Positions 5,282-64,000 of a stretch of 64,000 bases of DNA are shown here, piece after piece. The stretch lies in the IMG/VR virus record IMGVR_UViG_3300012953_000001, positions 114,430-178,429 of that record; one strand, 5' to 3'. A program made the position numbers and the translations under genes. Under the pieces are notes generated by a model. It was not told the DNA's origin. It searched no databases and was given only the letters and a program-made list of their open reading frames with translations. Within the stretch, counting starts at the first letter, position 1. Each line of letters starts with the position of its first letter. Source of the stretch: a virus.

Positions 5282-6703
5282 TCATGTTTTGAGACCATAC
5301 CTATCTCCTGCATCATAATTATCGGGCACAGCGATACCGACCTCTTTCATCCTCGATTCAATCGCAGACGTAGCGGTCGAGCGCCCTTTGTTAAAGTGCT
5401 CATTCTCATGAGCGTACGCTAAAAGTTCATCAAGCTCTCCCCTGCCTAGTGCTTCTGTTAGCTCAGAAACAGTGGAGCCTGCTAACTCAGTCAACTTGAT
5501 TCGCTGTTCGGTCGAAGGGGTCGTAACCTCTTCCGGGGCTACCTTATTAAGAGAGCCGCCCAAACGCGAAAAATTTCGAAGTAACGCTTTTTGAGCCGAA
5601 GCAGCCGTTGAAGCAAGGTCTGCGAGTTTCTCAGCTGTGGTCGTTTCTTCTTCAGACGCAGAAGACCTAATAGCCTCAAGATCCGCTGCTCTCTTGGCAC
5701 GAGCCTCCTCAGCCTGGGCAACGTATGAGGCATTGTATGCCTCAGCGAACTTTGCTGACGCGACTTCAACCGTATCGGAACTATCCCAATCATCTCCTAC
5801 CGCTGCGGCCATAAGGGCCACGCGACCAGCGGGAAGCGCCTCAGCTACCGTACTAACAGTAGTGGTGCGTTCTTCCGCTTCCGATGGCAGAGTTATCTCC
5901 CTAGGTTGGAATCCAAAAGGTGGTATGGGGGTGTTTATAATACCCTCCGCACCAAAGGACCTAAGAGTCTTTCCTGTGGAAGCTGGTTTGGCGAACCGAT
6001 CACTACCGCCCGGAGTTGCCATCCTCTCAATCCTAGCAGGAGGCTCAAACCCAGCAGCGGAAAAAGCGGCACCGCGCCTTTTGGTACTGAGATCCAAGAA
6101 GTCCTGGTACTGCGACCAGTTGATTCCTAATCTGCTTTCGATGTTCTCCGCCGTAAGAGACCCTTTGTCTAAAGCCTTAGCCATCCCAGTGGTCTCTGGG
6201 CCAAAGCCTTGAGAAGCAAGGTGCGCTTGTACCTCAGGGATAAGTTGTAGGGCAGGCGCTCTACCAAAGACTAAAAACCTGTACCCGTTGGCATCAAGCT
6301 CTCCTGCATCACGCATAGTTGCGGCAACCACCGCAGTCATCTCGCGGCCACCAAGAGCTTCCCGCGCATCATCGACACCGCTGTAAGTGTCCGGGTCATT
6401 TAGTACTGCTAATGCAGTTATGCGCTCAGCCTGGAATCCGGTCTCCAGCTTTGCGGCAAGGCCTTCATCAGACTCAGATAACGTCAGTATCGTAGATACA
6501 ATGCTGGACTCAAGCTCTAAACCAGAGACTTCATAGGCCGATGCAATAGCTGCTGCGTTCGGTGATGTGGACTCCGAGATAAGCGACGTGAACACCTCAG
6601 AGGCGTAAGTCAACCTCGATTCCGTCGTCAAGGTGTCACCCACTGCCGTAGCCACGGAAACTAAATTCGCAGCACTGGATACTGCACCTTCATCAATCGC
6701 CAT
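5282..6703 (-). CDS. acidic Ala-rich hypothetical protein
   Basis: 473-aa ORF in the virion gene block; no catalytic motif recognised. Confidence 0.65.
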   Translation of the reverse strand: MAIDEGAVSSAANLVSVATAVGDTLTTESRLTYASEVFTSLISESTSPNAAAIASAYEVSGLELESSIVSTILTLSESDEGLAAKLETGFQAERITALAVLNDPDTYSGVDDAREALGGREMTAVVAATMRDAGELDANGYRFLVFGRAPALQLIPEVQAHLASQGFGPETTGMAKALDKGSLTAENIESRLGINWSQYQDFLDLSTKRRGAAFSAAGFEPPARIERMATPGGSDRFAKPASTGKTLRSFGAEGIINTPIPPFGFQPREITLPSEAEERTTTVSTVAEALPAGRVALMAAAVGDDWDSSDTVEVASAKFAEAYNASYVAQAEEARAKRAADLEAIRSSASEEETTTAEKLADLASTAASAQKALLRNFSRLGGSLNKVAPEEVTTPSTEQRIKLTELAGSTVSELTEALGRGELDELLAYAHENEHFNKGRSTATSAIESRMKEVGIAVPDNYDAGDRYGLKT

Positions 6704-6724
6704 CTCTTTGTCCTCCGATAGTTA

Positions 6725-6907
6725 CTAAGCGTTACGCTCTTCCTGAACCTGCTTACGCAACTCTTTGCACTTAGTCGCAACCGTTTGTAGGACTTTTCGC
6801 ACTCTTCCGCCAGCAGCATTGTTACCGTCTCCATGCTTGTTGGCATCAACAAGGGATTCGGCTAATACATGAATCATGTCTTCCATCTGTTTTTCTACGC
6901 TCTTCAT
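6725..6907 (-). CDS. histone H1-like Hc1-family protein
   Basis: 60 aa with D..KHGDGNNAAGGRVRKVL..LRK, the signature of the Hc1 N-terminal domain. Confidence 0.7.
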   Translation of the reverse strand: MKSVEKQMEDMIHVLAESLVDANKHGDGNNAAGGRVRKVLQTVATKCKELRKQVQEERNA

Positions 6908-6908
6908 A

Positions 6909-7577
6909 CTATCCTCCTATTTTCGTGTTAGGCATTCGAGCAAAACCAATTAACCTAGTTTCTCTATCAAGATCGTGGGTTAATCGTTTTACGTGGGAGG
7001 GAAATCTCCCAACGTTTCCTTCTATTGTTTCTATCACACCGTGCTGATAATTCTCAATAATTCCAATGTGGCCTTGCCAAGACCCAGGCTTTCCTCGATC
7101 CCAGCATACGATATCGCCTGCTGCTGGTATCGTTACCTCAGACCCCGCTTCTTTGATATACTTGTACAGCGCTTTCGCTCCGTGACTAGTTTTGAAGGGA
7201 AGGTCAACGCCGAGACTATCCGCTGCAACCATACAGCAGTAACTAACGAAACTAGCACACCAAGCACCATCATCATCAGGATTGCCGTCGTCAGGAATTC
7301 CTTTATAGCGAGCGATATGCTCCCCAGAGTTGTTACCACCAATTTCACCATTGCCGATCTCCTTGATAGCTGTTTCTAAAGCCATGAGACCGAGATTACT
7401 TGTGGGACCACTATTACCAAACATATCTAATAATAATGACTGCTGGGTTTGTGGGCCGCAGTAACCATCAACAGACAAGCCCTTGCTTTCCTGCCAATGT
7501 TTAACGAGATGCATTATCTGCTCTTGGGTAAACAGCCCAAGCTCGATTTGGTGTTTATTATATGATTCTGCGCTCAT
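6909..7577 (-). CDS. peptidoglycan-binding + CHAP domain lysin
   Basis: WQESKGLSVDGYCGPQT (PG-binding); WCASFVSYC, GHIGII and IEGN (CHAP). Confidence 0.85.
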   Translation of the reverse strand: MSAESYNKHQIELGLFTQEQIMHLVKHWQESKGLSVDGYCGPQTQQSLLLDMFGNSGPTSNLGLMALETAIKEIGNGEIGGNNSGEHIARYKGIPDDGNPDDDGAWCASFVSYCCMVAADSLGVDLPFKTSHGAKALYKYIKEAGSEVTIPAAGDIVCWDRGKPGSWQGHIGIIENYQHGVIETIEGNVGRFPSHVKRLTHDLDRETRLIGFARMPNTKIGG

Positions 7578-20685: not shown

Positions 20686-20756
20686 ATCGCTGCTGAATGC
20701 CGTACTGGATTACATAAGCAAAAAACGAATCTAGTACACCCCCTTGTCAGCAGCAT
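20686..20756 (+). ncRNA. Y RNA-like structured RNA 2 (~70 nt)
   Basis: GCUGCUGA/UCAGCAGC lower stem, GUACUGGAUU/AAUCUAGUAC upper stem, and CCUUGUC shared with RNA1. Confidence 0.6.
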
Positions 20757-20797
20757 CCTTAGAGCCTGAACTATTGTCACAATCAAAGGAGTTTCTC

Positions 20798-22390
20798 ATG
20801 AACCCAGCAATCTTCAACACTCACACCGTCGTCAACCGCAGCGCAGAAGCCCCGGCAACTAACACTACCAATGAGGCTGGTGGTGCTGCGTACGAGCTTG
20901 AGCCCAAGGCTCAGCTTGCACAGTACGTTTGTACTGGAACCCTCAACCAAACTTTCTACGCCCATGCTGGAACACAGCTGGAGAAAGTCATCGAGCTTTG
21001 CGAGAAGGTCGAGCCTGAGTTCATTGCTCAGTGCGCGGTCTACGCTCGCACCAAGGGCCACATGAAGGACATGCCTGCTTTGCTGCTAGGTATCTTGTCC
21101 ATCAGGGATACGGCTCTGTTCGCACAGATCTTTCCTCGTATCATTACGAATGGAAAGATGCTGCGGAACTTTGCTCAGGTGATCCGCTCCGGTTCTGTTG
21201 GTCGTAAGAGCTTCGGCTCTCGCGCCAAGAAGTGCATCCAGGAATGGCTTCGGTCAAGAACCCCAGAGCAGCTTCTTGTAGCTACTATTGGGAACAACCC
21301 GACGCTTGGTGACATCATCAAGATGGTCCACCCTAAGCCGGTGGACGAAGTGCAAAAGGCGATGTTCGCTTGGATCATTGGTAGGGACTTCAACATCGAA
21401 GTTCTCCCCCAAGGAATCCAAGAGTACATCTCCGGTACTCGGGTGACCGAACAGATGCTTCAGAACCTTCCTCACAGACTGCTTACAAAGTACGATCTGA
21501 CGACGGAAGACTGGCGCGTCATTGCACTAAATAGTGGGTGGACTGCTAAGCGAATGAATCTCAACTCGTTCGCGAAGCACGGCGTATTCTCCTCAGAGAT
21601 TGGAGACTGGACTGCTAAGGAATTGGCTTCCAGTATCCGAGATCCGAACGAGATTCGTCGGTCCAGATGCTTCCCCTACCAGTTGCTGACTACCTTTCAG
21701 AACGTGAACGATGATGTACCCACTGTCATCCGAAGCGCTCTTCAGGACGCCATGGAGGTGGCTATCGAGAATGTGCCAACCATTACTGGTAATATGGCGG
21801 TTCTCGTAGACACCTCTGGTTCTATGGGTAGTCCCGTAACTGGGTACCGAGCAGGGTCAACTACTTCGACGAGTTGCGTCGATGTGGCGGCACTGATTGC
21901 TTCGGCGTTCCTTCGTAAGAATGAAGACGGCTGCACAGTCGTCCCATTCGATACTAGGGTCCACCAAGCACGCCTCAATCCTCGCGATTCTGTGATGTCA
22001 AATGCACAGACTCTCGCGAACTTTGGTGGCGGCGGTACTGATGTATCTTGCGCCCTTCGGCACCTCAACCATGAGGGACATGAAGGTAAGTTGGTAGTCA
22101 TCATTTCGGACAACGAGAGTTGGATGAATGATGATCAGTACCGCTACTACAATAGCAGTACTTCTACAGCGCAGGAGTGGGAGCATTACAAAGAGCGCAA
22201 CCCTGGGGCTCGCCTCGTTTGTGTTGACATCGCACCGTACGGAAGCACTCAAGTGCCCACGGATAAGGATGTCCTCAACGTTGGTGGCTTCTCGGACTCT
22301 GTGTTTGACGTGATTGCGTCATTCGCAGGGGAGCGACCTCAATCAGATCATTGGGTATCAATGATTGAGGCTCAAGCTCAAGCCAATTAG
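20798..22390 (+). CDS. rsr: Ro60/TROVE-domain RNA-binding protein with vWA domain
   Basis: NEAGGAAY, YAR..GHMKDMP, MLRNF.Q.IRSG..GRKS.GS, MVHPKP and the VDTSGSM MIDAS motif; AAAGGAG SD before ATG 20798. Confidence 0.95.
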   Translation: MNPAIFNTHTVVNRSAEAPATNTTNEAGGAAYELEPKAQLAQYVCTGTLNQTFYAHAGTQLEKVIELCEKVEPEFIAQCAVYARTKGHMKDMPALLLGILSIRDTALFAQIFPRIITNGKMLRNFAQVIRSGSVGRKSFGSRAKKCIQEWLRSRTPEQLLVATIGNNPTLGDIIKMVHPKPVDEVQKAMFAWIIGRDFNIEVLPQGIQEYISGTRVTEQMLQNLPHRLLTKYDLTTEDWRVIALNSGWTAKRMNLNSFAKHGVFSSEIGDWTAKELASSIRDPNEIRRSRCFPYQLLTTFQNVNDDVPTVIRSALQDAMEVAIENVPTITGNMAVLVDTSGSMGSPVTGYRAGSTTSTSCVDVAALIASAFLRKNEDGCTVVPFDTRVHQARLNPRDSVMSNAQTLANFGGGGTDVSCALRHLNHEGHEGKLVVIISDNESWMNDDQYRYYNSSTSTAQEWEHYKERNPGARLVCVDIAPYGSTQVPTDKDVLNVGGFSDSVFDVIASFAGERPQSDHWVSMIEAQAQAN

Positions 22391-25631: not shown

Positions 25632-25706
25632 AAGTGGCGTCCCTTACAGGGGCGCTACTTTTTTACCTAAAAGAAAAGCGGGGCAACCAATAAAGGCTAC
25701 CCCGCT
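25632..25706. terminator. back-to-back intrinsic terminators for convergent genes
   Basis: Plus hairpin 25632-25660 with T tract; minus hairpin GCGGGG/CCCCGC at 25678-25705 preceded by AAAA. Confidence 0.7.
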
Positions 25707-25730: not shown

Positions 25731-25799
25731 TTAGCTACAGCAGCATGACTCACTGCAACAAGGTTTCTCACACGCACATTTACAACAATCCTTATCCAT
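25731..25799 (-). CDS. 22-aa metallothionein-like peptide
   Basis: MDKDCCKCACEKPCCSESCCCS (9 Cys); AAGGAGG SD; followed by a terminator; below the ORF-track cutoff. Confidence 0.7.
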   Translation of the reverse strand: MDKDCCKCACEKPCCSESCCCS

Positions 25800-25815
25800 A
25801 ATCCCTCCTTAGTTA

Positions 25816-27483
25816 CTATCCAACAATGACCCAGCCTCTACCGGCACCAACGTAAACAAGCATCACAGAAGCCATTTTGAAATCGAGGGTAAGGTGTGGC
25901 TTACCTTCAACATGGAATCCCTGTGGATCTACGATTCGAACCTTGGCGTTCTCGGCAAGCCCGGTAGCCTTAACAGTGATTGCCATACCAATCAGGTCAT
26001 GACACCCGTTAGGATCCCCAAACATTCCACCTTCTTCGGCCTCACCGATAGTGGGCGTTGGGGGTGGTGTAACACTTTCGCCGCCACCCTCAGACAAGTG
26101 GCCTTCATACTCCGCCATCGCTGCTTTGTACTTATCCATTTCCGAATTGCTGAAGCTGAAACGTCCGAACTCATACATTGGGTGCCCCTCTGCGGGCAGA
26201 GTCAACGTAAAGGTTTCATCCTTACCAAGCTCATTAATGAGGAAGTTAGTACAAAAGCAGTCAGGACCCTCAAAGCTAATGTAGTGCCCACTCTCTTCAC
26301 CTGTGGTTTCTAAGATCTTCCAAGCATACAGCTGCTTACGCAGATGCTCATGGAGAAGACCTAACTCCATCCTCGCTGAAGAAACTTCCGACGAAGCGTA
26401 CTGTCGAAGATTCGAACTCATCTGTGGAAGAACTGAGTCGTAAAGATTGTCCCCAAACTCATTCTGCGCTTCGACGATCCCATCAATAGAGGCGGTGAAG
26501 GAGTCCTCCATTAGCTGATCAGCATTCTTATACCCCGCTTCGATATCAGCAACCGCACTATCGTTTTGGTTCTTGTAGCTGTTGAAATCAGACAGGTGCT
26601 GCTGAGCATCTTTACGATGCGAGTCTACCGTATCCCCAAGCGCACGAATCGCGCCCTCGTTGGCAACGATAGCCTCGCTCAGATCTTTATTGAAGTTCTC
26701 AATAATCGCCTGAAGACGACTCTCAGTGCTAGATAGCTCATCGGTAATCCTCTTACCAAGTAGCTCGTCCGCCGCAAGGCGAGCGTTTCTTTCACCAGCA
26801 ACAGCAGCTACACGAAGATTCCTCTCAGCGACAACAGCCTCTGAAGCTTCTGCTCGATCCGCTGCTCTCTCAGCGTCATAAGTCTCTTTCTGGACAACTG
26901 CGGCCCCAAGAAACTTAGCGACAGGAACAAACACACCTTGATCGTTTTTGATCTCGATCTGGTCTAGCTCGTCATTGTAGACACAAGTGCCCTCGCCACC
27001 ATCTTCGAACTCCCAAGAAGGAGTGCCCATCTCGTCAAGTCCAGTGATCCAGGCAATCTGGCCTTCTCTATTGTAAAGAGGGTCGCCCTCTTCGACAGCA
27101 GGGTCTGTCTTGACGATGAAGCGAGCACCTTCTTGAAGATCCTCTGGTGCAAGGTCAGCAGACTTACCTACCTGCCTTTTAACAGCATCTCGCCAAGTAA
27201 CCTGTAGGCTGGCAAGCTGTGCTCTAAGGCCAGCAGCCTCCTTCTCCAAGTTCTCAGCGAGAGTCTCGAATGCAGCTTCTGCGGCCTCTCTGACAGCGTC
27301 GTCGCCTGACTCAATAGCGGCCTGAAGCTCAGCTTTCTGATTCTCAAGATCAGATAGGATGCTCGCAACTGAGTTAGCATACTTACTATCTATTGCACCA
27401 AGCTCTGTCTGGTTGACCAACTGACCAACCTGACGTGCTGCGTGTTCAATAAGCTCCCACGCGGGTCTAATATTATGTGACAT
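25816..27483 (-). CDS. acidic coiled-coil protein with phage structural-type C-terminal domain
   Basis: 555 aa, long heptad regions; C-terminal LTLD..ASVMLVYV..GW motif seen in phage fibre/structural proteins. Confidence 0.55.
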   Translation of the reverse strand: MSHNIRPAWELIEHAARQVGQLVNQTELGAIDSKYANSVASILSDLENQKAELQAAIESGDDAVREAAEAAFETLAENLEKEAAGLRAQLASLQVTWRDAVKRQVGKSADLAPEDLQEGARFIVKTDPAVEEGDPLYNREGQIAWITGLDEMGTPSWEFEDGGEGTCVYNDELDQIEIKNDQGVFVPVAKFLGAAVVQKETYDAERAADRAEASEAVVAERNLRVAAVAGERNARLAADELLGKRITDELSSTESRLQAIIENFNKDLSEAIVANEGAIRALGDTVDSHRKDAQQHLSDFNSYKNQNDSAVADIEAGYKNADQLMEDSFTASIDGIVEAQNEFGDNLYDSVLPQMSSNLRQYASSEVSSARMELGLLHEHLRKQLYAWKILETTGEESGHYISFEGPDCFCTNFLINELGKDETFTLTLPAEGHPMYEFGRFSFSNSEMDKYKAAMAEYEGHLSEGGGESVTPPPTPTIGEAEEGGMFGDPNGCHDLIGMAITVKATGLAENAKVRIVDPQGFHVEGKPHLTLDFKMASVMLVYVGAGRGWVIVG

Positions 27484-27718: not shown

Positions 27719-27765
27719 AGTATTGGTAAGAAGTGTCGCCAACTAATATTTTTAAGGAGTTGATT

Positions 27766-28539
27766 ATGGCAACAGTTATTATTGGTGATGTACATGGGTG
27801 CGTCGAGGAGCTTAACCAACTTCTAGAAAAGGTTTACGATAACGTAGACGCTGTGGACGAATTTATTTTCGCAGGCGATCTCGTAGATAAGGGCCCAGGC
27901 TCTGTCGCAGTCCTTCGGTACGTCAAGGCTCTAAGTGCTCTCCACAATGTAACTATTGTGGAGGGCAACCATGAGAACAAAAACTTCAGGTTTTGGAAGA
28001 AGGTTGAGGCGGGTGATCATGAGCGTGCCATGAGTATGAAGAACTCTTCGGAGCTTTCTAAGATCATGGAGAAGGCAGACACCCCGCTCAGAAACTGGCT
28101 GCGTGACAAGGTCGTCCCTTATGCAGTCCGTCCAATGCTTGGGGTGGTCGTTGTTCATGGAGGAATCACCCCATCGGTTGAAGACCTCCCCACGGACTAC
28201 ACCTTGCTTGGGGGTAAAAACAAGAAGCGGGTACTACGCAGCATGTATATCCGTTATATTGACGACGAGGGAGTAATGATTCCTTTCGGTAAGGAGCGAT
28301 CTGGAGACAAGTTCTGGGCTGAAAAATATGATGGTCGCTTTGGCCACGTATACTTCGGACACCAGCCTTGGATGAAAGACGGGCCTGAGTACTTTGAGTT
28401 TGCTACGGGAATCGATCTCGGCTGCGTCCATGGGGGCTACCTCTGCGCAGCCGTTGTTCGAGGACCACTGCTTGCTCATAGGGAATTCGTTACAGTCCGT
28501 GCGGGCAAGGAGTACTGCCCTCCCCTCTTGTTGGACTAA
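27766..28539 (+). CDS. calcineurin-like metallophosphoesterase (PrpA/ApaH/PNKP-phosphatase-like)
   Basis: GDVHG, GDLVDKG, GNHE, HGG, FGH and IDLGCVHGG motifs. Confidence 0.9.
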   Translation: MATVIIGDVHGCVEELNQLLEKVYDNVDAVDEFIFAGDLVDKGPGSVAVLRYVKALSALHNVTIVEGNHENKNFRFWKKVEAGDHERAMSMKNSSELSKIMEKADTPLRNWLRDKVVPYAVRPMLGVVVVHGGITPSVEDLPTDYTLLGGKNKKRVLRSMYIRYIDDEGVMIPFGKERSGDKFWAEKYDGRFGHVYFGHQPWMKDGPEYFEFATGIDLGCVHGGYLCAAVVRGPLLAHREFVTVRAGKEYCPPLLLD

Positions 28540-29663: not shown

Positions 29664-29695
29664 AAGTTCGGGGGAGAAATCCCCCGACTTTTTTT
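29662..29695. terminator. bidirectional terminator
   Basis: TCGGGGG/CCCCCGA hairpin flanked by AAAA and TTTTTTT between convergent genes. Confidence 0.75.
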
Positions 29696-30674
29696 AGCCA
29701 TCACTCAAAACTAACTTAGCTTTTATGCGTTTAAGTAGATCCGGTAAGAGCTTCTCTGCGGCCTCCACACCTGCCTTGTAGAAGGCAATTGCTTCCGAGT
29801 GTTCATAGTGGAACTGCGTAGTGTAGTCTGCCCACTTATCTGGTGCGGGGGCGTACACAATCTCCAAGTCCAGACCCGCGTCATAAACATCCTCAATGTC
29901 TTCATGAACATTAGAGGTGATAGCCGCCATGCAACCGCGAGCTACAATCTTATGGAACGGCTCTTTCTCCACCCCAGGATTATGTCCAGGGCTTGGATCA
30001 TCTAGAATGATACCGATGATCAAGGGATTCCTCTTTTTAAGCTCAGGCACACCCAACACAAAATCTGCTGGGAAGTACGAGGCCAGTCCTCCATCCACCA
30101 ACATGTCTTTCCCAAAACGATGTTCATCAGGGAAGACATCCTTGATGTAGTCTGGGTAGTCATTCTCGTCAAAGGGGAAGGGGGTGAAAACCGCAGGTAT
30201 GCAGCAACTGCCAATACAAAACTTCTTCCAAGCTTCTGGAGACATGTCTTGGAGATTGCACACGACTTCCTTACCTTGGGTGAGGGAGAAGGCGTTCACA
30301 TAACAAGGCTTACTCAAGGGCTTGGGAAAGAAGTTCGGCTTATTGATGGCTTTCTTAAAAACTTTGGGAGAGCTTATAATCCCGCCATCCTTTAGCATGT
30401 AGTACACGTGGCTTATCACGCGACAAATGCTCCCGCCGATCCTGGCGTGGCGAGACAAGTTATCCTTCTTATCAAAGATAGTAAGCTCTTTGAAGTCCAC
30501 GTCGGAGGCAAGCCATGCGCTAACGATTGCCCCCGCAGAGTCCCCTGCATAAGCAGCGATCTCAATACCCTCATCCTCCAGCGCCTTCTTGATTACACCA
30601 GCAACCGCGCTCAGGTAAGGAAGCCTGCCTCCAGCACCACTCAAGACTAAACAGGTAGGTCTATCACTCAGCAT
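29694..30674 (-). CDS. patatin-like phospholipase
   Basis: SGAGGR, GDSAG (GxSxG) and DGG catalytic motifs. Confidence 0.85.
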   Translation of the reverse strand: MLSDRPTCLVLSGAGGRLPYLSAVAGVIKKALEDEGIEIAAYAGDSAGAIVSAWLASDVDFKELTIFDKKDNLSRHARIGGSICRVISHVYYMLKDGGIISSPKVFKKAINKPNFFPKPLSKPCYVNAFSLTQGKEVVCNLQDMSPEAWKKFCIGSCCIPAVFTPFPFDENDYPDYIKDVFPDEHRFGKDMLVDGGLASYFPADFVLGVPELKKRNPLIIGIILDDPSPGHNPGVEKEPFHKIVARGCMAAITSNVHEDIEDVYDAGLDLEIVYAPAPDKWADYTTQFHYEHSEAIAFYKAGVEAAEKLLPDLLKRIKAKLVLSDG

Positions 30675-34952: not shown

Positions 34953-35656
34953 TTTTTTAGTTTCTCAAAGTCATCGGAGTACAGGCGGTCAACTCTGTCA
35001 TTGAACCAGTGAAGGTGGATCAAAAGAAGCTCAACCAACTTCTCACCCATGTTCATGATCTTTTTGTACTTCTCATTGAACAGGTCCATGTCAATGTCGT
35101 CGCCCTTGCCGACAAGAGGAAGCTCCTTCCCGTTAACGGACTCCAACGACAACGCCAATCGCGCATAACCCATCCAACTACGAATGCCCCAGTCGGTCGT
35201 GGCTTGGTTCTCAGCGTTCCTTTCGATCCAAAAATTCTCAGATGCTAAAAGGGACCTGTACCTAGTAGTAAGCTTCCTCTCCAAGATAGGAACCGTCTGG
35301 TTAACTCGCCCTGTCAAAACAAGGTCTGAGAAATCCATAGGAGAACACTTCTTCTCAATCGCCTTTCGGATTTCTGGGTTGTCTGACGGTGTGTTCCGAT
35401 AAAACACGGGGTCCGTAGAAGTGCCAATGCCTGCGAGGACCTCTTCGTCCACCTCGATCTCTTCTTTGTGGAGCTTCTCAGCTTCAACCTCTTCTTCGTG
35501 CATGGTCTGCACATCTTGCTCGTACTCGCGAAGTTGTTTCGCGAGATCCGGGCTCATAGTCGGCTTCTCTTCCTCAGCCACTACTGCTGGGGCCTCCTGC
35601 TCATCCTCAAGCCTTTTTTTGATCTTAGAAAGATCTGGTTTCATACCGCTGCTCAT
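34946..35656 (-). CDS. tail assembly chaperone-like protein (short form)
   Basis: 236 aa acidic protein ending CTA AAA AAT GGG TAG; G/GT-like two-frame layout. Confidence 0.55.
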   Translation of the reverse strand: MSSGMKPDLSKIKKRLEDEQEAPAVVAEEEKPTMSPDLAKQLREYEQDVQTMHEEEVEAEKLHKEEIEVDEEVLAGIGTSTDPVFYRNTPSDNPEIRKAIEKKCSPMDFSDLVLTGRVNQTVPILERKLTTRYRSLLASENFWIERNAENQATTDWGIRSWMGYARLALSLESVNGKELPLVGKGDDIDMDLFNEKYKKIMNMGEKLVELLLIHLHWFNDRVDRLYSDDFEKLKNG

Positions 35657-36504
35657 TGTCCCGCTTCCTCCATCACTCGGTCAAAAGGAAAGCCCGCTAT
35701 GTCCCACTTTCTTTTTGTAATATGTAGGTGAGACATGTGGCCCTCAAAATTCCAAGGTTCATCGATAACTGTTGTTGAATCCGGATGCACTAATGGAATA
35801 CCGAATTCCTTATATATGAAATTACTTAAATCTATACAAGTCTGTATTTGTGTTTCATACAGGCCCAAAAATGTAGGGGTGCTGTTGTGCACCTTTGCTG
35901 TCCATACAGGGCGCTCGCCCCAGCGCTTCGCATAATACTTTTGGTATTTCATGTAAACAGCATTCGAGATTTCAAATCCTAGGGAGACCTTATTCATCTT
36001 CCGGTCTCCCGCGTGCCATCCAACATGGTCTTTGAAATCAAGGTGTTGCAGAAGAGTCCCATCATTATCAATACTACCGTGACAAGATATACCACGCTTC
36101 TTAAGGATCTTATAGCAAGACTCCGCGCTAAGCGCAGCATCCCAATGCCAAACCACAGAAATAGGGTCTTTCCTTCGAGTCGAATGCCCAGCACCAATCA
36201 GCGAGTAAGCAGAATCAGGTGTGCAAGGAATGCTCTTAAACGGAACAGGCTTCAAGACACCACCAACAGTAATAAACCCTTTGGCATCTGGATAACGCTC
36301 ATGCGCGATAAACTCCGCCTGGGTCTGTAAGCGTCTCCATGTATTAGGTCCGCACTTCCCGTCAACCGCTAAATCCTGTTCTCTCTGAAACTCAGCTACA
36401 GCCTCTGTGATTTCCGTAAACGTGGCACTCTCTGATAGTCCAAGGTGCTCCCTGGTCCAACCGAGTTTGGTCATACTCCTAATGTTATACTCTTCAGCAG
36501 TCAT
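35653..36504 (-). CDS. PG-binding + N-acetylmuramoyl-L-alanine amidase (Amidase_2) endolysin
   Basis: FQREQDLAVDGKCGPNTW; VVWHWD, WHAG..N..SLGFEI, GH..H. Confidence 0.85.
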   Translation of the reverse strand: MTAEEYNIRSMTKLGWTREHLGLSESATFTEITEAVAEFQREQDLAVDGKCGPNTWRRLQTQAEFIAHERYPDAKGFITVGGVLKPVPFKSIPCTPDSAYSLIGAGHSTRRKDPISVVWHWDAALSAESCYKILKKRGISCHGSIDNDGTLLQHLDFKDHVGWHAGDRKMNKVSLGFEISNAVYMKYQKYYAKRWGERPVWTAKVHNSTPTFLGLYETQIQTCIDLSNFIYKEFGIPLVHPDSTTVIDEPWNFEGHMSHLHITKRKWDIAGFPFDRVMEEAGQ

Positions 36505-61010: not shown

Positions 61011-61370
61011 ATGACTAACATGAAAAGTGACCGCACAGGTCGAGAAGAATTTAATGCTCTTCTAAACCAAGTGCTACAAAAACGTAAACATATAGATAAC
61101 GCTTCTCACAACGGCTGGACCATAGATTGCTATGTAGGGCACAGACCGAGTAAGGAGCAGGCAAACGTGTCTCAAATTGAGTACTCCGCGTATGCTAAAA
61201 CTGGCGATTTGTCTTCTAGTCAAATGCCAGAATTGTCCGATACCCCACGAGCCATTCGTGTAGATTTTGATGACACATCAGTTGTAACCCTCGTATCCGA
61301 TACAAAAGAAGGTATTACGAGCAAGCTACAGCTTATTTTCCAGGGATTCTCCTGGGACAAAGGGATCTAA
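61011..61370 (+). CDS. hypothetical protein
   Basis: 119 aa. Confidence 0.6.
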   Translation: MTNMKSDRTGREEFNALLNQVLQKRKHIDNASHNGWTIDCYVGHRPSKEQANVSQIEYSAYAKTGDLSSSQMPELSDTPRAIRVDFDDTSVVTLVSDTKEGITSKLQLIFQGFSWDKGI

Positions 61371-61375
61371 CAATC

Positions 61376-61870
61376 ATGCAGAATGCAGATTATCTTCAAG
61401 AACAGTTGAACTCCGCTACTACAGCGCGAGACTCCTTTGTTGCCTCTATGGGCAACGACTACAGCCGAGGCAACCTCGACCGACTGCAAGCTTTGCAGCA
61501 GCAGGTCAACGAGGCACAGTCTCGTTTCGATTCCGCTAATGCTAGCAATGGCAGCAACGGTAGTAATGGTGTCGCTTACGCGACCGCAACTCCGCAGGCT
61601 AATGTTGCTGCGGCTAACATGACCGTTGTGACTCTTATCCGAAACGGTAAGAGTGACCGCTGTCTAGAGGTTCGTGCTGACGCGACTCTGGGCGAGATTG
61701 TGGGTACTCTCAACACACAAGAAGGTGGTTGGGATATCCGTAACTTGACCTTCAAGCGTCGAGTAGGACCCGGCCAGACGGCTGATATTACGGACCCTAA
61801 CAGCGCCACTCTTGGCGAAGGTCCGCACGAGATTTGGGTTGGGAACAAGGTCGCTGGCGGAAACGCTTAA
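61376..61870 (+). CDS. coiled-coil + ubiquitin-like (beta-grasp) protein ending GG-N-A
   Basis: N-terminal Q/A-rich helix; VVTLIRNG..LEV..ATLGEI..; C-terminus KVAGGNA; upstream of E2 and JAB. Confidence 0.6.
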   Translation: MQNADYLQEQLNSATTARDSFVASMGNDYSRGNLDRLQALQQQVNEAQSRFDSANASNGSNGSNGVAYATATPQANVAAANMTVVTLIRNGKSDRCLEVRADATLGEIVGTLNTQEGGWDIRNLTFKRRVGPGQTADITDPNSATLGEGPHEIWVGNKVAGGNA

Positions 61871-61921
61871 GCGGTCTCCAAAACAAATCCTCGTTATAAA
61901 TTAATCTAATAACGAGATATG

Positions 61922-61956
61922 GCGAGGGCCCCTTCGGGGGCCTTCGCTATTTTTTT
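61922..61956 (+). terminator. intrinsic terminator between Ubl and E2 genes
   Basis: GCGAGGGCCCC-UUCG-GGGGCCUUCGC plus UAUUUUUUU. Confidence 0.8.
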
Positions 61957-61968
61957 GTGGAGCTTCCA

Positions 61969-63081
61969 ATGGCAACTGCAACAGCAAAGAATTACGTATT
62001 TGACCTCACTAATGACGACGAACTAATAGCCTCACAACTACAGAAGATCGTCACCGACACTAACCGGTTTGAGGCTAAAGAGCTTATCCGACTATCAACC
62101 CAGCTGAACCGCGAAAACGCTTCAGAGCGTATGCACAACGGTAAGCTATCTAAGCGTGCTGAAATATATGAGCGGGCCAAGACAAGGTTGACAGCAAAAG
62201 AGAAAGAGTACGAGAAGGCACGCTACCGTGCTCGTCAGGCACGCGGCAAGATGATGGATCGAACTTCCAAGTCTGCTGCTGCAAGAGAGCGGGCCTCACA
62301 TTGTGAGCGAAGAATCTCTGAGATCAAAGCTCGCATGATGAGAAGTGAGGAACTCTATCAGGAAGACGCGTTTGAAAGACGTGCTCTGATGATCCGATTT
62401 GTTGAAAGTCTAATCAACACCGAACAGCCTATTAAGCTTGAGAGCTACGGTGAGAGACTAACCCTAAGTTGGGAGACTAACGACGTATATATTAAAGATG
62501 GATTTGGCGGTTTTCTGGACCACTGTTTTGGCAGATTCCACGTATCAGTAGTATTCACGCAACGCCCTACAGGAAACTCTATTGATGTGTACTGTCGGAC
62601 AAGATCTACTACAGAAGAAAACTTTCGTAGAGGGTACCCACACCCCCACCTAAACTATAGCTCAGGTCATGCTTGTCTAGGGAATTTGGCCCCAAGGCTT
62701 ATTCACGGCATGGGTGATAAAGATGTCGCTTCAGTTATTCAGGATGTCTCAGAATTTCTGATGCACTACAACAAAGAGAACCCCTACGTTCGCTTAGAAG
62801 AATGGATTCCTAATAGATGGGATAACCCTATTTGTGAATCTAACGAACACCTTCTAGCTGATTGTACCTGCCCTCGGTGTAGCACCTGTGGGTCTATCTT
62901 TGAAGAGTCTGACCTAAGCGACTGCGGAAGCTGCCACAGTTGCTGCATGGTCAACCATATACATAGTCCAGACACAGAAGGTATCAACGGATCAAGTTGT
63001 ATTGAGCGAAGCGAGTATAACGCTCGTGTTCGGGAAAACAGCGTTTCTGAGGGTACAGAGAATCAGACAGGAGTAGTGTAA
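61969..63081 (+). CDS. coiled-coil + prokaryotic E2-like (UBC) domain + Cys/His cluster
   Basis: YPHPHL..SGHACLG active-site pattern; C-terminal 10 Cys/4 His. Confidence 0.7.
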   Translation: MATATAKNYVFDLTNDDELIASQLQKIVTDTNRFEAKELIRLSTQLNRENASERMHNGKLSKRAEIYERAKTRLTAKEKEYEKARYRARQARGKMMDRTSKSAAARERASHCERRISEIKARMMRSEELYQEDAFERRALMIRFVESLINTEQPIKLESYGERLTLSWETNDVYIKDGFGGFLDHCFGRFHVSVVFTQRPTGNSIDVYCRTRSTTEENFRRGYPHPHLNYSSGHACLGNLAPRLIHGMGDKDVASVIQDVSEFLMHYNKENPYVRLEEWIPNRWDNPICESNEHLLADCTCPRCSTCGSIFEESDLSDCGSCHSCCMVNHIHSPDTEGINGSSCIERSEYNARVRENSVSEGTENQTGVV

Positions 63082-64000
63082 TGAAGGTTACAACAAAGCC
63101 TACAGTGCGCTTCACGCAAAAAGCGTATCAACAGATGTTCGCTCTTACGGATGCATGCCCAATCGAAATTTCGGCAATGGGTGTTCTCGCTACAGACGAG
63201 CAAAGAAATGAATGGGGAATTGATGAGGAGTTCTACGTACTAGACTTCCATGTTCCAGATCAAGAATGTACCGGTGGTAGCACGATCATGGAGACAGACT
63301 CATATGCTGACCTGTCTTTGGAGCTTCGTGACCAAGGAATTAAACCAGAGCAAGTCTGCGTTTGGTGGCACAGCCACGTAAACATGGGCGTTGGTCACTC
63401 TGGTACTGATGAGAGGCAAATTGAAGACTTTGGCTTCGACGAAGTCTGCATCAGCATCATCACTAATAAAAGACGAGAGATTAATGTTCGAGTAGATATC
63501 TTTTCACCTGTTCGTTATTCCTTTGAGGGATGCGCGTATGCAGTTGATCAGGTTAGTATTCTAGACGACGGTTGGGCTAAAGAGATGGTTGATAACCATG
63601 TCACTAAGCCTGCTCCCGTTCGGATGAACGTCAGTAAGAAGTCTACTAAGACTACAGGTAAGGGCTACTATGGTTCTTACGTGGGAAACCTAAACGGGGT
63701 CAATGGTCATCACTGGAACAACTGGTCCGGAGACGACGACTACATCGGATGGGACGCAAAAGACGACGACGAAAAAGAAGAAAAGGTTGAAGTGCTTGCA
63801 GAAGAGGAAGAGTCAATCGACCTTTGTCTCCCGCACGAGCTAGAAGAGCTTCAAGAGTTATTCGATGATCAAATCATAAGTTTTAGTGAGGTCCTTGACT
63901 ACCATGCAAAGTGGTACGCCAAAGAGCTTAGTATTGAGGAGATTACCGACGAACTCAGCCAACTCTACTATGACACCTACAAAGGCCGTGGGTACGTAGA
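63081..64000 (+). CDS. JAB/JAMM metalloprotease (3' truncated)
   Basis: TAATG overlap; hand translation gives EISAMG..WWHSHVNMGVGHSGTD (E..HxH-x7-S-x2-D); open to the window edge. Confidence 0.85.
   Translation, partial: MKVTTKPTVRFTQKAYQQMFALTDACPIEISAMGVLATDEQRNEWGIDEEFYVLDFHVPDQECTGGSTIMETDSYADLSLELRDQGIKPEQVCVWWHSHVNMGVGHSGTDERQIEDFGFDEVCISIITNKRREINVRVDIFSPVRYSFEGCAYAVDQVSILDDGWAKEMVDNHVTKPAPVRMNVSKKSTKTTGKGYYGSYVGNLNGVNGHHWNNWSGDDDYIGWDAKDDDEKEEKVEVLAEEEESIDLCLPHELEELQELFDDQIISFSEVLDYHAKWYAKELSIEEITDELSQLYYDTYKGRGYV

Follow-up and report, generated by a model that had tools for sequence, protein, structure and literature searches.

A phage genome of 178,429 bp, recorded in IMG/VR as a virus with direct terminal repeats, contains a micro-gene of 22 codons whose product, MDKDCCKCACEKPCCSESCCCS, carries nine cysteines in 22 residues (41%). 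Our analysis makes it most likely that the micro-gene is genuine and translated on its own, although its translation is itself something that we infer. The reading of its product as a phage-encoded, unusually short metallothionein-like molecule with an orphan cysteine skeleton is partly supported. Should the peptide be produced and bind metal, a phage would be shown to encode a molecule of the metallothionein type, one shorter than the fungal molecules of 26 residues that have long been regarded as the shortest. Such a result would also imply that auxiliary genes of a certain class, by which phages may alter the trace-metal handling of their hosts, escape standard gene calling. All positions below refer to the window, which is the whole stretch of DNA that was analysed and comprises the last 64 kb of the record, unless the record itself is named.

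The micro-gene and its expression signals

The micro-gene forms the second half of a two-gene transcription unit that it shares with a gene for a 555-aa protein (Table 1). The initial annotation had described a peptide of 22 aa with nine cysteines in CC, CxC and CCC clusters and without an aromatic or aliphatic core; its frame was said to follow the 555-aa gene at a distance of 16 nt, with an AAGGAGG Shine-Dalgarno (SD) site in front of it and an intrinsic terminator behind. Translation and inspection of the locus bear out each of these points, and add the strand (minus), which had been missing. The cysteines follow the skeleton CC-x-C-x-C-x3-CC-x3-CCC-x, the earliest of them being residue 5. 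The peptide is devoid of F, W, Y and H, its non-polar residues are limited to M, A and P, and with three K, two D, two E and four S it is hydrophilic, lacking both a hydrophobic core and a signal peptide. The cysteine codons (six TGT and three TGC) are mixed with codons for K, A, E, P and S, so that the frame is not a simple repeat.

Table 1. Features of the two-gene unit and of the end of the convergent unit (window coordinates)
Feature	Positions	Strand	Details
555-aa gene, coiled-coil fibre-like product	25816..27483	minus	From the ORF list; own SD AAGGAGG at 27497-27491
Shine-Dalgarno site of the micro-gene, TAAGGAGG	25804..25811	minus	8-nt anti-SD match; 4 nt to the ATG
Micro-gene, 22 codons (69 nt)	25731..25799	minus	ATG at 25799 to TAA at 25731; product MDKDCCKCACEKPCCSESCCCS
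Intrinsic terminator	25668..25706	minus	Stem 25706-25677, 12 pairs (8 G-C), tail TTTTCTTTT; closes the two-gene unit
Apparent hairpin and T run, end of the convergent plus-strand unit (ORF end 25609)	25633..25663	plus	Sequence reading; absent from the consensus terminator scan and thus less certain

The distance from the TAG of the 555-aa gene (25818-25816) to the ATG of the micro-gene is exactly 16 nt. Of the 28 copies of AAGGAGG that the genome contains, 13 stand before ORFs of at least 50 aa, the 555-aa gene included, and that of the micro-gene is the only one to precede the ATG of a short ORF. Both this SD site and the AUG are unpaired in the centroid fold. The spacing between them lies at the short end of the workable range, which counts against the reading as a gene for a metal-binding peptide. 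The terminator, a strong one for which fold prediction gives the identical hairpin, begins 24 nt past the micro-gene stop. It sits after the micro-ORF and not after the 555-aa gene, in a spacer of 110 nt that is otherwise empty. Downstream on the minus strand there is no gene to be regulated, and past the terminator lies only the convergent plus-strand unit. Extension of the 555-aa protein by readthrough or frameshifting was considered and rejected, because stops intervene and the two ORFs do not share a frame.

The gene callers missed the micro-gene, and we compared its cysteine density with expectation. TGY makes up 3.0% of the trinucleotides, which gives a probability of 4.7e-9 for at least nine cysteines in 21 codons and, over 2,551 small ORFs, about 1.2e-5 such ORFs expected per genome. 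In 20 simulated genomes the maximum was 36% Cys, reached in shorter ORFs alone. Genome-wide, no ORF other than the micro-gene exceeds 40% Cys; among the ORFs of 22 aa, the runner-up has five cysteines and is not preceded by an SD site. A six-frame HMMER search of the phage's own genome recovered the peptide once, at 33 bits and E 8.5e-9, without any paralogue, and about 4 Mb of unrelated loci, enriched for TGY-rich DNA, held no comparable non-repeat ORF. The long ORFs of the phage contain 0.93% Cys, with a TGT to TGC ratio of 249:209 that is close to the 6:3 of the micro-gene. Nothing pointed to a structured RNA, a reading that we rejected: the stretch folds no better than its shuffles (z = +1.38), and Rfam gave no credible match over it. 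Given the tiny chance expectation, the perfect SD site, the placement of the terminator and the lack of any special RNA fold, we regard the frame as a coding feature, and consider it quite probable that the micro-gene is a real gene.

Searches for the peptide and its cysteine skeleton

The exact peptide was absent from a collection of 15 billion proteins, and its back-translated exact core had no match in IMG/VR. The full cysteine skeleton with free spacers returned, among the IMG/VR matches listed, only (TGY)n microsatellites. With a non-T first base at five spacer codons, the skeleton gave two matches in IMG/VR, both repeats, and 118 in metagenomes, all of which were repeats or off-frame. 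Skeletons with variable loop lengths and the C-terminal half followed by a stop each produced only noise among the IMG/VR matches listed. The complete pattern of ATG, skeleton and stop was not found in IMG/VR and occurred once in the GTDB species genomes, as a (TGT)n tract.

Searches with the peptide itself led to the same picture. Comparison with phages by tblastn and blastn returned nothing meaningful, a tandem copy of the peptide used as query had no word match to any called protein of 24-77 aa, and six-frame HMMER on 401 sampled Gammaproteobacteria gave chance matches only. Four loosely related IMG/VR records, taken at full length, contained no such ORF. Since the skeleton searches recovered no second member, the exact skeleton is an orphan within the collections searched. 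Separately, the record IMGVR_UViG_3300010327_000378 (locus L272, 616-804, plus strand) displays three tandem units of about 70 nt, two of which open with an ATG and read M(K/N)LG(E/G)CRYCCCWCKCCLLSCCCY; an SD site is not evident, and the units probably represent repetitive sequence read in a wrong frame.

The adjoining 555-aa gene and its genomic surroundings

The micro-gene is co-transcribed with the 555-aa gene and with no other. The two constitute an isolated minus-strand unit, which lies between the convergent plus-strand unit and a divergent gene for a metallophosphoesterase (27733-28539, plus). The 555-aa protein had no significant match in Pfam or PHROG. In a collection of 5.8 billion clustered proteins its only full-length relatives were P0002 (90% identity) and P0003 (77%), P0004 being the window's own 555-aa protein. 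Exhaustive HMMER searching added P0006 (462 aa, 37% identity) and P0007 (589 aa, 26%), both of which match only the N-terminal ~270 residues. The recurrence of this N-terminal part in otherwise different proteins points to a shuffling of domains such as tail fibres show. Atlas neighbours of the protein fall into phage tail-fibre-like clusters, with scores below 0.9 that make them leads only, and the AF2 model, with long helices and small beta domains, has a pLDDT of 49 and is too poor for a fold search. Owing to these low scores, the protein may only tentatively be called fibre-like. Four cysteines (C167, C409, C411 and C494), together with neighbouring His, are invariant in its three full-length homologues.

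Neither the locus nor the 555-aa protein matched any GenBank phage by megablast or tblastn, and searches with the protein or its alignment found no relatives of the locus in IMG/VR, metagenomes or the GTDB species genomes. A family A DNA polymerase is encoded elsewhere in the record (61361-63250, outside the window; locus L495), and as its best GenBank phage matches reach 31-34% identity, the phage appears to be without a close cultured relative. For a 473-aa protein of the phage, likewise, no close phage relatives were found.

Several other genes can be assigned by their domains. A 548-aa protein (20744-22390, plus) combines TROVE and Ro60-type vWA domains (Pfam E 3e-14) and is a Ro60/Rsr homologue. 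Two genes that flank the two-gene unit, for a patatin-like phospholipase (29694-30674, minus; E 5e-10) and for the metallophosphoesterase mentioned above, which is calcineurin-like (E 5e-17), belong to an accessory island with mixed gene orientation. The product of 35653-36504 (minus), with an N-acetylmuramoyl-L-alanine amidase domain and a peptidoglycan-binding domain, is a probable endolysin. Outside the window, at record positions 5777-7394 (locus L481, 417-2034), the gene after a RecA-like one (288 aa) encodes a radical SAM activase of the NrdG type (197 aa), which matches TIGR02491 at E 7e-26, short of the curated cut-off.

The octamer GGNATAAG occurs at 19 sites of the window (for example 17392, 18522, 20401, 25316, 27711 and 28915), against an expectation of 7.2, and in 100 shuffles the number of 19 was never attained. 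The majority of sites lie directly in front of genes on the plus strand, which fits a phage-specific promoter element. The octamer is absent upstream of the 555-aa gene. A search for a T4-like late-promoter motif gave nothing convincing.

Metal binding, alternative functions and comparison with known systems

The composition of MDKDCCKCACEKPCCSESCCCS agrees with the operational description of a metallothionein: the peptide is small, 41% Cys, free of aromatic residues and His, and contains CC, CxC and CCC motifs. The initial annotation, which had called it metallothionein-like, thus holds as regards composition, but not as regards sequence family. Nothing in Pfam (with its metallothionein families, PF02069 included), NCBIfam or the PDB chains matched the peptide at E <= 10, a negative result that is weakened by the composition filters of HMMER. 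Since a match to a curated family is absent, we speak of functional analogy and not of membership.

We posit the following course of events. The micro-gene would be transcribed as the last cistron after the fibre-like 555-aa gene and translated from its own strong ribosome-binding site. Because a signal peptide is absent, the product would stay in the reducing cytoplasm, where a chain so hydrophilic, with its nine thiols and without a hydrophobic core, could not fold alone. To our knowledge, the only folding route for such a chain in this compartment is a metal-thiolate cluster around soft metal ions. Most likely the peptide would wrap such ions into one cluster, of about three Zn(II) or Cd(II) on the nine cysteines (M(II)3Cys9), or of four to six Cu(I), and in the infected cell it would buffer metal on a small scale or act as a sink for it. 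What we infer here is that the peptide is translated, that it binds metal, in which stoichiometry it does so and what it does physiologically, and a role as a Cu/Zn/Cd buffer is suggested by the composition of the peptide.

That the peptide represents a new phage micro-metallothionein is plausible, the proposal resting on one sequence. The combined statement that the micro-gene is real and that metal-thiolate binding is the main function of its product is a tentative one, which we would place somewhat short of probable. Slightly less probable again is the wider proposal of a phage-borne micro-metallothionein with an independent skeleton, encoded by a gene invisible to gene finders and belonging to an unrecognised class of auxiliary micro-genes of phages, that controls host Zn or Cu (or Cd or As) and is maybe used or delivered together with the fibre-like protein. 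Genes for the handling or sensing of metal are missing from the phage genome, among them any for an HMA-domain protein or an ArsR-type sensor, and in the literature searched we found no paper on a phage metallothionein. An earlier suggestion, that the peptide supplies Zn to many Cys-rich phage proteins, is unsupported, since the phage proteome is not rich in cysteine (0.93% in the long ORFs, with about eight ORFs containing two or more CxxC motifs).

Other readings of the micro-gene deserve consideration. The frame might have no peptide function at all, being untranslated, decaying, or recently arisen without a selected role. Such a history would agree with a skeleton that is an orphan in every collection searched, with the silence of the gene callers and with the missing exact peptide among the 15 billion proteins, and yet the chance expectation of ~1e-5 per genome, the perfect SD site and the placement inside a transcript speak against it, as does the fact that decay does not create nine Cys codons; we consider this reading unlikely. 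Somewhat similar in standing, and also rather unlikely, is a role as the dedicated partner of the fibre-like protein, either as an assembly factor or as a small part of the virion by which the fibre is stapled or capped, with disulfides or a metal site common to both as the link. The isolation of the two genes under one terminator, between divergent and convergent plus-strand units, and the invariant cysteines and neighbouring His in the homologues of the 555-aa protein would suit such a partnership, and the modular make-up of that protein and its Atlas leads suggest a tail fibre. However, the fibre assignment is weak for the scores given above (Atlas below 0.9, pLDDT 49), and we know of no fibre chaperone that is a 22-aa Cys peptide. 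The thiols could also act without metal, as a sink for redox equivalents or electrophiles, or the peptide could be an inhibitor or decoy for a host protein. A peptide of 22 residues with nine free thiols is chemically reactive, and the gene has no link to a metal system; nevertheless, cysteine-rich free peptides in cells bind Zn or Cu anyway, and a precedent was not found in the literature searched, which leaves this function improbable.

Two further readings explain the cysteine codons through regulation or through modification. Ribosomes pausing at Cys codons when Cys-tRNA is scarce might alter the fate of the mRNA, a mechanism that is established for polycysteine sORFs (10.1101/834739), and nine Cys codons among 22 followed by a terminator superficially resemble an attenuator. 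The micro-gene is SD-led, however, and forms the last, 3'-terminal cistron; it ends 24 nt before a terminator beyond which there is only a convergent gene, and an alternative RNA structure is not evident. We therefore rejected the attenuator and regard a cysteine-sensing regulatory ORF as very unlikely. The peptide could, finally, be the precursor of a RiPP, and its richness in Cys and Ser does recall the cores of lanthipeptides, sactipeptides and ranthipeptides. A leader is absent, though, with only four residues ahead of the first cysteine; the sole radical SAM gene of the 178-kb genome is the one of NrdG type, 133 kb away; and a YcaO gene is lacking. A search of the phage for LanC gave no match but carries no weight, since its control genomes were equally silent. 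The initial annotation had judged a RiPP less likely for want of a leader and a modifying enzyme, and we agree in rejecting it as extremely improbable.

Metal-thiolate binding, the reading that we prefer, can be set against known cysteine-dense systems. The polycysteine sORFs of mycobacteria share with the micro-gene a short ORF dense in Cys codons; they are leaderless, stand first in their transcript and control the ribosome-binding site of downstream genes for Cys metabolism (10.1101/834739). The micro-gene, in contrast, is led by an SD site and is the last cistron, with a terminator and then a convergent gene behind it. In the prokaryote world, Cys-rich metal binders are represented by SmtA/BmtA (PF02069), which have about 55 aa, use His and Cys as ligands, adopt a zinc-finger-like fold with aromatic residues and are usually under the control of an ArsR/SmtB repressor. 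The phage peptide differs from them in having no Pfam match and no His, and its phage has no ArsR-type gene.

Closer in size are the shortest classical metallothioneins, with 26 aa and 7 Cys (PMC4755600). Like the Cu-thioneins of Neurospora crassa and Agaricus bisporus, the phage peptide is a very short, single-domain Cys peptide free of aromatic residues, and shares with them an existence solely as a cluster, which in its case is putative. The fungal molecules have mainly CxC motifs in their 26 aa with 7 Cys, whereas the phage peptide of 22 aa holds 9 Cys in CC and CCC runs; there is no sequence match between them, and the phage-encoded peptide binds metal only putatively. The beta-type domains of metallothioneins contain nine cysteines that form an M(II)3Cys9 cluster. 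Unlike the free-standing phage peptide, to which the searches run detected no homology, they are parts of 60-aa proteins and differ in Cys spacing, but they resemble it in their equal number of cysteines, similar length, hydrophilic spacers of K, E, S, A and P, and freedom from aromatic residues.
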